Shown: piece after piece, positions 43,701 to 44,303 of the stretch
How positions within the stretch are numbered: the stretch's first letter is position 1
How the letters are laid out: every line of letters starts with the position of its first letter
Source of the DNA: an uncultured Chlamydiae bacterium
GTDB lineage: Bacteria; Chlamydiota; Chlamydiia; Chlamydiales; JAJFMB01
Length of the DNA: 64,000 nucleotides
NCBI GenBank assembly: GCA_963696295.1
Contig: CAVOJR010000001.1
Span: 1-64,000, forward strand
Direction: 5' to 3'
The notes under the pieces: model-generated
Database searches by the model: none
Seen by the model: only the letters and a program-made list of their open reading frames with translations
Told to the model about the DNA's origin: nothing
Position numbers and translations under genes: made by a program

Positions 43701-44303
43701 TCCTACCATCTGCTCGGCTGGTCGCTCGGAGGGACGATCGCGCTGGAAATTGCGAGCCTCCTTGAGCAGAGAAATCCAAAGACAGCAGTCAAGCTCTACA
43801 TCCTGGATACCGTCCTTTATGAAAGCCATATATACCCAAACAACTTGAAGAGTTGGGAATTGGGCAAGGAGGTTCCTTCAAATTTTTGTGCCGATAGGCA
43901 AGGCACGAGTGAGGATGAGAATTTGAAGGTAAAACCGACGAAGCCCAAAACCAACTCTTCAAGTTGTTTGGGTATAACATACGATCTCGAAAAGCAGAAG
44001 AGGGAATATCGCCTCTTTGCCAAATCCGAGGGGCATGAAGAAGCTTTTATCGAAAAAGTGATCGCCAATATGGATGTGGAATACAAACTGAGCCGGCAGC
44101 CCCTCTCAGCCGCTTTGCAAAACAGCGATATTTTATTGTTTAAAGCCATGCAAAAGGATACCCGGTTTGATGAGGATTACGCCTTAAAGCTGAAATACAA
44201 CAATTTGGAAAAAGCCGGCAAAAAACTGAAGCTGGTCGAAGTCAAGGCCCATCATGGGAATATAATAAAACAAGAGAAGTTAATCGCTTCGCATATAAGG
44301 TAA
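28695..44303 (+). CDS. Hybrid NRPS-PKS: A-T-C-A-T-KS-KR-T-C-A-T-E-C-A-T-TE
   Basis: 4x YTSGTTG A domains; 5x GG[ND]S carriers; HHIAFDG x2 and HHAILDG C domains; KS TACSTS/HGTGT/NIGH; KR GGLGGIG/YCAAN; E domain HHLIIDAVSW/EGHGRE; TE GWSLGG. Confidence 0.96.
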   Translation: MQERSGKLITELFEKQAALTPDNIALVFEDKRITYRELNEQANRLAHALDIPQDSLVALCLDKSELMLVAILAVLKAGGAYVPIEPAYPDERIGVILEDAAPVMVLANKKDAARLAGLTQAKIIDIEYASFQQNPSVNPKKTSSLAYVIYTSGTTGKPKGVVQTHQNVRRLFAATEEKFHFDARDVWILFHSYAFDFSVWEMWGALLYGGRLVIPGTRDLKELYRLCREEQVTVLNQTPTAFYAFIDMAEEKLPSLRVVIFGGEKLNVSALKPWVEKYGFLRPALVNMYGITETTVHATYKQITDLESHSIGTMLPHLKGYILNEELYIGGEGLSPGYWNNPELTAMKFITDKERGRLYKTGDLVRLLPNGELEYLGRSDFQVKIRGYRIELGEVESALLTYPGIRQCAVVAKAQYLAGYYVSAERLDEEKILRHLLEKLPEYMVPAHLVPLEKLPLTGNGKLDEKQLPAYQNDASNPSNELERQIQQVWQEVFGLEKIGVHDNFFRLGGNSLLAIKLTTRLRKELKAHIPFSTLLKYNTIAGLAAHFQRIPRESIEAGDAKVLSFGQERLWFIQEFEEECSAYNLPMMFKIPKSTDQGLLEKCLKSIVWRHEVLRSYIREDSEGFGYQAAGDPSLFEIEKIKGSPFETEWQNHVFDLSAEFPVRAFFCETGEEAYLCLVIHHIAFDGWSMDLFFQELEALYLGKSLPELKIQYRDFAFWQRSHIDFDPQLSFWKEKLKDYENLNLPADKARPARIDYRGRDIPFELDRETTEGLKALARELNVSLYCVLLAGYALMLRVYSGQEDIVIGTPLANRHYPEIENLIGFFVNALPVRMKIEGEVAEFIQKIWGEILEMQQHQDLPFEKLVEALKAPKDTSRHPVFQVMFGVQSFGNIDELLEPCPVDHAPAKFDLSTFIDDSGECLKGLFNYAVSLFEEETVKGFIATYREILQQLPQKKIGSPSQTAVDEADFPSEGLHELFERQAEKYPDHPAVVYEAKTVTYRKLNERANQLAHYLKEAHGIGPDTLVALCLDRSEQMIVALLAVLKAGGAYVPIDPLYPDERIAYIGQDTGAAVVLANEKHKERLEKLLPSPVIALEHLHLNQPTANLNHPFSQDQLAYVIYTSGTTGKPKGVMIEHAGVVNFIAYYIAKYEFAPKDAISQYLALSFDAAGSEIYSALLSGAALHIIPDSIRLDVKALAHFIESNRITFSVFPPAILGELPVFEEPKRIIVMGESCPLKVLEAWVEGGHQLINGYGPTEATIGSIETAFIQKGRIKNNVIGRPIANRTVYIMGEEGVKPVGAVGELYLGGVGLARGYWNNPAATAEKFVPNPFQENSKLYKTGDLARWLPNGELEFVGRNDFQVKIRGFRIELGEIENALLSFPGIKQSAAIARETSQGKAIVAYYAAEEKLDEAKIVSHLQKKLPAFMLPASLVFLNKLPLTLNGKLDTKALPLPENKKIADASGLEQKIALAWAEVLGKECGVEDNFFDAGGNSILMIRLKAKIEKHLGIECKISTLFKYPTIRSFSQSLGDLPLAEDVSAGANVPVAVIGISGEFPQAGNLSEYWDHLVNGRECLDVLSEERCREMGISEEMIRNKNFFPVEGIMPAIDRFDSAFWQLSERDAALMDPQIRKFLEHAWMALEYAGEIKERRKNKIGVFAGAGESQYPKSADWESQMMSKDFLATRVSYLLGLTGPSLNINTACSTSLTAVVEACKNLVLGTCGVAIAGGVSIAMPEHYGYVYKEGMIFSKDGHCRVFDEASSGTVGGSGIGVVVLKRLDEAIRDKNPILALVKGFASNNDGHRKAGYTAPSALGQTECILQAQKGAGISPDAIDYVECHGTGTPLGDPIEVQALHDAFKTHPYACKLGSVKANIGHVDSAAGAAGFLKVCLMLKHKIFPPQIHFQKPNAALELEKTNFTINRAKEAWNSSKARRAGVSSFGIGGTNAHVILEEYPEAEPSRETGPFALPVSAKTPRAHKEYCQTLAKFLRDHPGISLSDVAYTLRHGRESFPVRCTILCKDREEAIAQLEQAPLNETGDVFENEGKLIELPPYPFEKKRCWYAPETTETIFYAAWKTLAKIRPRNLSKQETWLIFRDAAGVLDPLIESLEGQQVIVVNYDPGLEKIELQDSITMNLYREDHYESLAAFLRHKEISYVIHGWTLTGPLDFEFLQHLGFYSLYFLQMKWLSAINQLPHLICLTNGAHQVTGEDEIHTGKGTLAGALRTISNESCIKTALFDIGRNKATLAAVLTLMDLSDRRQVNYAERAGYLWQEKAEPLVFTEETPLLADGDLILISGGLGGIGLAIAKEISRRHKVKFLLISRGEPKSAYQKESLRIISQNGSEAEIYSCDIGKKEELQRVIGNRKISAVIHAAGTVALGVSERNRESIKGAFQGKVKGAENLYHLLKNKPLKIFALISSLAGIMGDIGRIEYCAANTYLDTLSGVISPFRMLSIDWPGWFQVGMSADSPRDENSLTEEEGAELFYRLMNQPHYTQVIVSKVDPGQIRQSMERQISKAAAMKEGTDLEQKLAEMYSQVLGCSALSKEDSYFELGGDSLSAIRLIHLIKNELQVPMNMDILYRESSIAQLARHIEKAQAAASPRGPLSFAQERLWFVEKYEEGSRAYNIPMIFRLPEEIDRETLKTALKKLVERHEILRTLIREDSEGRGYQLVERAGLEIPTVKGRAFDEEINHIFDLSREYPIRVCFYEEGYVSIVIHHIAFDGWSIDLFLKELEALYRFKQPKLPELKIQYRDFALRQRENLAKLGNQMAYWKEKLNGYEVLNLMTDKARPPQVDYQGRTIDFEIDEETSRNLRKLAKDLKCSLYSVLLAGYCLLLRAYSRQEDLVIGTPVANRHYEGVENLIGFFVNNLALRIVIDPEASSHEFIRKVGADVIEAQLYQDLPFEKLVEELGGVKDTSRHPVFQVVFGVQQFGKWDFLEPCKVEDRSARFDLSAFIEDGEPVLKGTFNYAVSLFEEETIRRYIVTYKEILKQLPTNRKLHYLTEPEVRQIEAWNRVRDYSQAKTVPELFEEKAALFPDRIALAFEEKRVTYRELNERANCLANHLIDVYDVRPDTLIALCFERSDELPAAILGVLKAGGAYVPIDPRYPDERIKYILEDSAPLLVLAEEVLRERLEELTTAPVVSRIPEAAAANPRPPITPANLAYVIYTSGTTGKPKGVLQTHHNITRLFAATQEKFAFSEHDVWMLFHSYAFDFSVWEIFGALLYGGKLAILTHQQTRDAHEIFRICRDEAVTVLNQTPAAFYALIDAAVKEEKLPALRVVIFGGERLNVASLKPWTDYYGLRPALVNMYGITETTVHATYHLVREESGSIGKMLPDLTAHVLDNALTPLPVGAIGELFIGGAGLARGYLNKPQLTEERFISTPFGRLYKSGDLVRRHSDGSLEYVGRSDFQVKIRGYRIELGEIEAALAEWPGVKRAVARVVKNPAGHDCLIGYYVADKPLDIVLWNTLPEYMVPAALVHLEALPLTAHGKIDLRALPGPVLDKQEGYVPPRNQLEEQMCEIFAEVLGLSKVGIQDDFFRLGGDSIVSIQLVSRLRQRLKLKVAVKDIFVHKTIEKLALHCQGHSAVIAEQGLLRGEVPLLPVQEWFFENNFPRPNHWNQAFLIKTPPLNIERLKSSLAQLIGQHDAFRLKFKNGVQYYDAEAPVEELKMFDIREGRLSEILTGWQSGFDLERGPLYSIGYLHGYADGSCRIHFALHHLIIDAVSWRILRDDLKDLYEGKPLGPKTSSYRQWAKAVKAPLEEWKGEEPLEVQNPVSASFRLTRADTEKLLTECHAAYHTRIDDLLLTALGYALTAATGRTVNSIVLEGHGREEIDDSLDLTRTMGWFTTFYPVRLEVAQDLAASIKNIKEALRNKTARYRNLPKICFNYLGQFDRGDGFWSLVDEPRGLMISPENKDDFNLNINGLVIDGELHFYLEGLDVAKAFQQKMEEIILHTSLKGIETEGVYPAGSLQQGFIYHALSQGDKDDAYIVQLLWRYDHAPDLGKLKAAWTLAQKKYGSLRLRFAWEEELVQIIDKKGRLDWRVIENESVEQIQIKDRLEPYKLDRGPLFRVYLIKEKENQYSCLFSHHHAILDGWSCSILINYVHEAYEKETPFAKDTAYEEALNFPRKSDDFWKNYVALLDERIDLGGLLRYPVKLSEYKHIAEQKEAVLVLNERLYRRLKELGQKEGVTFNAILQYAWHKTLKVYGHNRQTVVGTTVSGRNIPVDSIDRAVGLLINTLPLIVNHAEDQGIMETIRHIQEDLHELNNRSGANLAFLQKGERLFDNLFIYENYPSGNALTIKAVEKTDYPLTVIAHEKTFILRYAGELFPEERIQELLGVFEMLLEQIGLKHHPKDLVYQRQMEEWNQTDSPFPDKTITELFEAAVCPDKIALVCENIRLTYKELNERANRLAHFIKSRIAPDTPVALCLDRNEHLIIAILGVLKAGGAYVPVDPAYPDERLAYMLEVPLVLTNESHEKRLKQLSKADVLPIDQKGLLSSQSIENPKTETTSRHLAYILYTSGTTGRPKGVMIEHRSFVAALDAIQKLYFKGPVSTFSLTSCTFDIFGLEYGLPLLSGGTLTLGRNDFSSLDCRDFDFIQMTPSLCELKWHELTNTSNTLLMIGGEKLTPELYARIKSLRIAHVYGPTECTIWSTASSNQTLGRPLPNEKAYVLDEHLIPLPVGAKGELYLGGEGVARGYWNRPDLTAEKFIPNPFQSGSRLYKTGDLARRLPTGELEYIGRNDFQVKIKGHRIELGEVEAALSAYPGIKQAVAAAKGQTIVGYYVPKRELEEREILEFLSRKLPHYMLPDRLIPLKEFPLTLAGKVDRTFLPEPAGQSGYMPPRNEAEKRLQTLFQEVLGIENVGIRDNFFQLGGNSISAIKLVSKCPSLKVADLFVYKTIEGLAERMPDNLVKLNQATGLPNLFMIHPAAAGCEVYASLAKELEEQFSCYGVDSYNLHHTQKIENLTELSNRYLMAIDEVMAKTSQTSYHLLGWSLGGTIALEIASLLEQRNPKTAVKLYILDTVLYESHIYPNNLKSWELGKEVPSNFCADRQGTSEDENLKVKPTKPKTNSSSCLGITYDLEKQKREYRLFAKSEGHEEAFIEKVIANMDVEYKLSRQPLSAALQNSDILLFKAMQKDTRFDEDYALKLKYNNLEKAGKKLKLVEVKAHHGNIIKQEKLIASHIR
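43831..43976. mobile_element. 146-bp palindromic MITE/RPE-like element inserted in frame in the TE domain (family A)
   Basis: Perfect 26-bp TIR TATACCCAAACAACTTGAAGAGTTGG; internal IRs; TA at both ends; net 144 bp = 48 codons. Confidence 0.88.

Follow-up and report, generated by a model that had tools for sequence, protein, structure and literature searches.

Rickettsia palindromic elements (RPEs) are hairpins of ~150 bp from an intracellular bacterium; they occupy in-frame positions in conserved genes unrelated to one another and add a peptide of ~50 residues, as described in two reports (PMC2229807, PMC10969869). According to the first of these, a guanylate kinase carrying an RPE stays active, and target duplication by RPEs is entered as unknown in its Table 1 (PMC2229807). 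ERIC (also IRU or RU-1; ISfinder MITEEc1; MITEPlu5 in Photorhabdus), a MITE (miniature inverted-repeat transposable element), is an imperfect palindrome bounded by TA dinucleotides, with open frames and occasional in-frame fusions. The ends of ERIC and MITEPlu5 have been linked to CCC-type members of the insertion sequence (IS) family IS630 in PMC6267812. Correia elements of Neisseria, RUP of pneumococcus, and YPAL/RU-2 of Yersinia, which we compared by their descriptions, are likewise bacterial MITEs and reside in other hosts; the 107-bp Correia form fuses in frame, and RU-2 contributes to a predicted signal peptide. Here we analyze 64,000 nt (the window) at the start of contig C1 of an uncultured Chlamydiae bacterium (the home genome; 3.43 Mb, 97% complete), in which a palindromic element at positions 43831-43976 lies in frame in the thioesterase domain of a hybrid nonribosomal peptide synthetase (NRPS)-polyketide synthase (PKS). 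We conclude that it is a real, young MITE insertion of the ERIC/IS630 lineage, which behaves like an RPE and is not one.

The Insertion in the Thioesterase Gene

The element and its host gene comprise the following features (window positions):

28695-44303, + strand: hybrid NRPS-PKS, 5202 aa (4 adenylation, 4 condensation, and 4 carrier stretches, ketosynthase, ketoreductase, terminal thioesterase)
43722-43724, + strand: thioesterase Ser codon (GxSxG), Ser-88; Ser in 50/50 aligned rows
43806-43808, + strand: thioesterase Asp codon, Asp-116; Asp in 49/50 rows
43831-43976, no strand: MITE copy of subfamily A, both TA included, 144 bp net insertion, delimited by its arms and by comparison with the full 164-bp unit
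43831-43856, + strand: left-hand terminal inverted repeat, target TA included, perfect 26-nt arm; its first 20 nt are those of Vibrio ERIC ends and agree with IS630 right ends at 17-18/20
43833-43976, + strand: 48 added thioesterase codons, predicted with low confidence to form a loop where the lid begins
43875-43929, no strand: inner inverted repeat, 10-nt arms 43875-43884 and 43920-43929, with a further short hairpin inside
43951-43976, - strand: right-hand terminal inverted repeat, duplicated TA included, perfect 26-nt arm
44253-44255, + strand: thioesterase His codon, His-265; His in 48/50 rows

The window element is a 146-bp copy of a 164-bp unit, from which 18 bp have been lost between 43888 and 43889; besides this deletion, 3 substitutions separate it from the subfamily A majority. 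All 146 nt are predicted to form a single hairpin (-80.2 kcal/mol, z -12.2), and none of 200 shuffled sequences was equally stable. The original prediction, made from the letters of the window, had named perfect 26-bp terminal repeats, short internal pairs, a 48-residue insert in frame, and an open antisense frame; all were recovered at the exact coordinates, the inner pairs as part of the predicted hairpin fold. It had also proposed that either orientation can be tolerated. The open antisense frame of the window copy agrees with this, but in the full unit just 3 of 6 frames are open in subfamily A (2 of 6 in subfamily B), so that tolerance of an insert should depend on codon phase as well as on orientation. 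Rfam returned sub-threshold hairpin matches only (V_AS5, 27.7 of 96 bits, and plant miRNA models), which are uninformative, and plasmid sequences searched with the element gave no match.

The element lies in the final domain of an open reading frame (ORF) of 5202 codons without a stop, in whose PKS module ketosynthase and ketoreductase were matched and an acyltransferase was not. The insert corresponds to residues 125-172 of a 280-aa thioesterase fragment and begins 9 residues past Asp-116, just after the strand of the catalytic aspartate and at the start of the lid, as had been proposed. Lid regions of thioesterases influence product release. We sought the empty site in thioesterase homologues: the 48-residue peptide matched none of 120, and without it the span at this site is 40 residues, compared with 35-49 (mode 45) in 47 homologues. 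From four runs of soil DNA scattered contigs were obtained, and none of them bridged the thioesterase site or showed an empty site. Relatives of the thioesterase at ~40% identity occur in Megaera, Chryseobacterium, Serratia, and others. A single-sequence fold was unusable (predicted local distance difference test (pLDDT) 38), and we used an alignment-based fold instead. With 49 homologues, AlphaFold predicted a thioesterase fold for the insert-bearing domain with a pLDDT of 87 and a predicted template modeling score of 0.84; over residues 121-170 the pLDDT is 46-61. The best PDB matches of this predicted model are NRPS, PKS, and fatty acid synthase thioesterases. The model, which cannot show activity, is compatible with an insert looped out ahead of the lid helices.

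The Element Family and Its Target Site

BLAST with the element returned 90 segments in the home genome, with 24 exact matches to its terminal 26-mer. Two profiles yielded 46 loci, among them a few of another repeat; 26 are two-ended, and 20 are one-ended or other. These dispersed copies, short and bounded by terminal inverted repeats with no transposase, have the makeup of MITEs of the IS630/Tc1-mariner type. The full unit of 164 bp consists of 162 bp of net insertion (54 codons) and the duplicated TA. Its subfamilies A and B, both 164 bp long, are alike at the ends and unrelated inside (for the interiors, 442 of 500 shuffles score equally). Each of six full copies deviates from their majority sequence at 2-7 of the 164 sites. 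Two further members lie in the window:

4686-4749, no strand: second family member, 64-bp shortened subfamily B copy, intergenic
10138-10205, no strand: third family member, one-ended subfamily B remnant, intergenic

Duplication of TA, which the original prediction had read from the TA at both ends of a supposedly mobile element, could be observed directly at two nested insertions, not at the thioesterase site. One A copy is nested in a different repeat family (C1:487835), and another lies within a second A copy (C1:2884433); uninterrupted copies read through a single TA, and the filled ones differ from them by the element plus one TA. The flanks of the elements are A/T-rich, leaning to T-TA-A. 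At C1:2629574-2629849 and C1:2884245-2884640, MITE copies are stacked, the later ones in an internal TA of older ones. Copies at C1:2356602, 2735665, 2865647, and 3270256 lie 3-16 bp from the end of a neighboring ORF, a placement also described for ERIC at the 3' ends of genes.

In-frame Copies in Unrelated Genes

The expected copies in unrelated genes were indeed found, 13 of them in long ORFs of the home genome. Five are internal (thioesterase, CarB, HemD, CoiA, and a 552-aa unknown protein), and the remainder are near the start (SodC, NfeD, DUF2608, DUF6492, an MFS transporter, a GH130-like protein, a glycosyltransferase-like 619-aa protein, and a plasmid-contig ORF). We classed the 26 two-ended loci by the ORF of the empty site, which is independent of the element's own frame, with the cut for a long ORF set by eye. 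All 11 copies with an empty site in a long ORF keep the frame, whereas a net multiple of three is found in 5 of the 15 others (Fisher p 7e-4). The same holds among shortened or lengthened copies, where multiples of three occur at 5/5 long-ORF sites and at 4/14 sites elsewhere (p 0.011). Such preservation of frame is what selection on a translated insert would predict.

The CarB loop has 68 residues with the insert and 14 without it, compared with 8-19 in 36 homologues, none of which carries the insert; it is also absent from 4 HemD and 5 CoiA homologue rows. A close CarB relative comes from a Chlamydiae bacterium, and the CarB query had no match in the two relatives from the same family. The CarB ORF itself (C1:2392907-2395642) is short, with 911 aa and no MGS-domain match. 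Homologues of NfeD and DUF2608 start with a signal-like peptide (judged by eye), and the query matches it when the insert is ignored. Seven or eight of the 13 in-gene copies fall within the first 30 codons, which hold 10% of the WTAW sites in ORFs (p 1e-4 for seven), and part of the near-start cases may be mis-assigned start codons.

Spread across the Chlamydial Order

The 19-nt terminus occurs with up to two mismatches in 134 of 401 genomes of the order, a reversed control giving at most two matches per genome. At least 10 matches were found in 44 of 400 relatives (below, element-rich genomes), scattered over many families, and none in either of the two family relatives. Among 79 two-ended copies with sufficient flank (listed sites only, from seven element-rich genomes), 71 lie outside long ORFs, in intergenic DNA, and 8 lie inside, 2 of these doubtfully. 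The proposed chlamydial family thus exists, but to call it protein-coding, as the original prediction did, overstates its share in genes. At 6 of 78 copies elsewhere the element closes a long frame of the empty site (putative genes), which suggests that insertion is blind to frame. Elsewhere, in-frame copies were found in RecD (twice), ManC, a P-type ATPase, thiamine pyrophosphokinase, and a glycerophosphotransferase, and as N-terminal additions before TyrRS and others, a nonrandom sample obtained partly by peptide search. Such peptide searches yielded few proteins (9 among 12 candidates; 30 representatives, mainly short ORFs).

The 23 terminus loci in viral contigs comprise one ERIC copy and single chance-like matches, with no autonomous element among them. 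Long terminus pairs were found in 3 of 215 loci, none enclosing a convincing transposase frame. Lone matches in apparent coding stretches (L053, L075) are of a kind that can arise by chance for exact 19-mers at collection scale. Within the accessible literature pairing chlamydiae with MITEs, palindromic elements, ERIC, or IS630, which left ISfinder and most subscription papers outside, we found no account of the family, and the three MITE surveys searched make no mention of chlamydiae.

Ends of the ERIC and IS630 Type

We compared the termini to those of described elements. The exact 19-mer also occurs in 127-129-bp repeats of Vibrio, Shewanella, and kin (at least 118 stretches). All 5426 Escherichia coli genomes contain matches to one such Vibrio repeat (median 7 places per genome), and by eye the E. 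coli copy fits the ERIC consensus given in Table 1a of PMC2759123. The window element matches Vibrio ERIC at 20/20 positions on the left, where the copies were found by that pattern and are not independent, and at 16/20 on the right; both ends match the E. coli ERIC copy at 13/20. Judged by these matches and by those to IS630 given below, its ends belong to the ERIC/IS630 type, a known MITE lineage. The link between ERIC and IS630 is already published (PMC6267812), and a chlamydial branch was not found in the accessible print record. In other respects the element departs from ERIC. Its unit is 164 bp long (164-176 bp in the chlamydial element overall) instead of ~127 bp, it has a perfect 26-bp terminal repeat, and its interior shows no clear homology to ERIC or to the conserved central core. 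Its host belongs to a chlamydial order, not to the Enterobacteriaceae or Vibrionaceae (Gammaproteobacteria), and unlike the intergenic ERIC it has 13 in-gene copies in the home genome, some within conserved domains, a location not found for ERIC in PMC2759123. Shewanella repeats of 266 and 281 bp (L045, L062, L094), with the same 19-nt terminus and another interior, are further members of this end family.

The element shares with RPEs a palindrome of ~150 bp placed in frame in unrelated conserved genes. It differs in its TA duplication and candidate transposase, and in a lower in-gene share outside the home genome. The kinship with RPEs that had originally been suggested found no support: six element peptides matched no NCBIfam family at E up to 10, the RPE1 profile had no match in the home genome at E up to 1, and the ends are of the ERIC/IS630 type. 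We thus reject RPE membership in this peptide-level comparison.

A 16-copy IS630 of an element-rich genome led to a clade with MITE-like right ends, whose protein belongs to the IS630 family by NCBIfam. The right ends of all five gammaproteobacterial plasmid IS630 examined (Vibrio, Photobacterium, Salmonella, E. coli) match the window end at 17-18/20 positions and Vibrio ERIC at 23-25/27, and that of the chlamydial IS630 G008 matches the window end at 18/20. Among 5000 random windows 7 reached 17; six of these, at 20/20, are probably the MITE itself. Elements of the clade (in L419, L430-L434), which reside in other genomes, share their right terminal repeat and TA target with the MITE, but the latter has no transposase gene, and both of its ends resemble the right IS end only. 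The clade is present in 18 of 44 element-rich genomes and 35 of 355 others (odds 6.3), a comparison limited by kin that are not independent, by a query from a rich genome, and by IS-rich genomes being rich in everything. A Rhabdochlamydia plasmid carries a transposase nearly identical to one from a genome of the same order. Together with the TA duplication, these ends point to the IS630-type mobility that had been proposed. Other candidate sources were rejected: the ends of IS630 from other clades in element-rich genomes are unrelated, and the multi-copy IS elements from a self-comparison of the home genome have other ends. In L225 (G319) a MITE at 2056-2219 lies exactly at the terminal TA of an other-clade IS630.

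Origin and Fate of the Insert

Taken together, we hold it to be quite probable that an ERIC-ended non-autonomous MITE inserted at a TA, was likely moved by IS630, and likely survives as a tolerated in-frame loop. It would have entered the thioesterase gene with duplication of the TA, likely by cut and paste by an IS630 transposase supplied in trans. Insertion would be blind to frame, and selection would then purge the copies that break it. The thioesterase copy likely persists because it has whole-codon length and no stop and sits in a length-tolerant loop. Its 48 residues would be translated and kept as a loop, with a neutral to mildly harmful effect on the enzyme.

Several observations weigh against this account. 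In six comparisons of the interior with ERIC, 10-493 of 500 shuffles were as good, and five of the six do not rise above shuffles at the 4% level. For most chlamydial members of the IS630 clade, agreement with the window end is only 9-15/20, their left ends fit poorly, and the G008 element is a single copy whose end could be a fused MITE half. An IS630 transposase was sought in the 97% complete home genome and not found, and that of the clade is therefore lost from this genome or unassembled. The empty thioesterase site is ~5 residues under the modal homologue, and a small deletion may have occurred after or with the insertion. Finally, a low pLDDT is expected for any stretch without alignment rows, whatever its true structure.

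The position at the start of the lid, along with the influence of lid regions on release, would suit a loop domesticated to alter lid behavior and product release. This seems very unlikely, as the same peptide is found in unrelated proteins and signal peptides, no homologue carries it, the copy is young, and a second genome with this insertion was not found. We regard it as unlikely that the insertion crippled the thioesterase and that its open frame marks a recent, undecayed event. The insert starts 9 residues from Asp-116, the copy is young, and the complete NRPS region was not detected in any of 40 relatives, all of which would fit such a loss; yet the 5202 codons contain no stop, the Ser-Asp-His triad is intact, a later 18-bp deletion preserved the frame, the predicted model folds around the loop, and the RPE-bearing guanylate kinase stays active (PMC2229807).

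If the hairpin were lost or bypassed at the level of the RNA or the ribosome, adding no peptide, frame would be irrelevant, and yet all 11 in-gene copies and all 5 length variants keep it. The hairpin is very stable, and across 20 subfamily members its terminal stem covaries, with 98.5% pairing and double changes at 7 pairs, but covariation is expected for the terminal repeats of any transposon, which leaves removal or skipping barely credible. The chance that something other than IS630 moved the element, such as a tyrosine/HUH transposase or an RNA route, appears remote: TA duplication and the match to IS630 right ends speak for IS630, and no MITE locus adjoins the other IS605-type copy, even though IS605- and IS607-type elements, and no IS630, were found in the home genome and one MITE copy lies ~50 bp from an IS605-type end.

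Beyond the tolerated insertion favored here, we tentatively consider, with considerable doubt, that a chlamydial ERIC/IS630 branch has been selected for invisibility in genes, whole-codon, stop-free master copies colonizing a genome that is 86% coding, including loops and signal peptides. Net length is divisible by three in 17 of 26 sequence clusters, which carry 32 open frames versus 15 expected from shuffles, counts confounded by ancestry common to clusters and by the finding of some clusters through peptide search. A subfamily closed in all frames has 0 of 19 copies in genes. The crowding of 7-8 of the 13 in-gene home copies into the first 30 codons fits this reading as well. These data hint that the subfamilies lean toward open forms of whole-codon length, a hint that ancestry and sampling confound.

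Neighboring Genes and Other Repeats

The NRPS-PKS is flanked (27561-28735, 44306-47849) by genes for a LysE exporter, a phosphopantetheinyl transferase, a methyltransferase, and two protein kinases. An IS607-type element in the window (1915-4209; ORFs 1953-2585 and 2585-4090), present in 4 full copies and a fragment, encodes an IS607 transposase; its 501-aa partner lacks a Pfam match, has only weak TnpB/Cas12f2 scores, and is predicted to be a long, divergent TnpB-like protein. The home genome holds at least five palindromic repeat families in total. One of ~20 loci, some in tandem (C1:393930-394160, 649000-649200, 1704870-1705110, 2515450-2515650), includes a copy upstream of kdsA that hosts a MITE. 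A ~168-bp family, bounded by CTAG and with unrelated ends, is found at C1:211930-212100, 2009040-2009240, 3038250-3038440, and 3137820-3138020. Two more are located at C1:56560-56760 (in the window), 309740-309970, and 2792170-2792400, and at C1:113090-113260, 879110-879310, and 1116100-1116290, respectively.

Implications

Palindromic inserts that keep the reading frame are familiar mainly from Rickettsia, in which their mover is not known. The same behavior in another phylum, with an observed target duplication and a candidate transposase clade, makes the origin of peptide loops testable, and ERIC-type ends are extended from the Gammaproteobacteria to the Chlamydiota. The family flags a source of odd inserts of 50-60 residues and of mis-called starts in chlamydial annotations. 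Its copies amount to a natural insertion scan of tolerant sites, among them the start of the thioesterase lid, CarB, HemD, RecD, ManC, and signal peptides. If a branch selected for invisibility in genes does exist, RPE-style peptide insertion would, with the candidate transposase, become reproducible in the laboratory.

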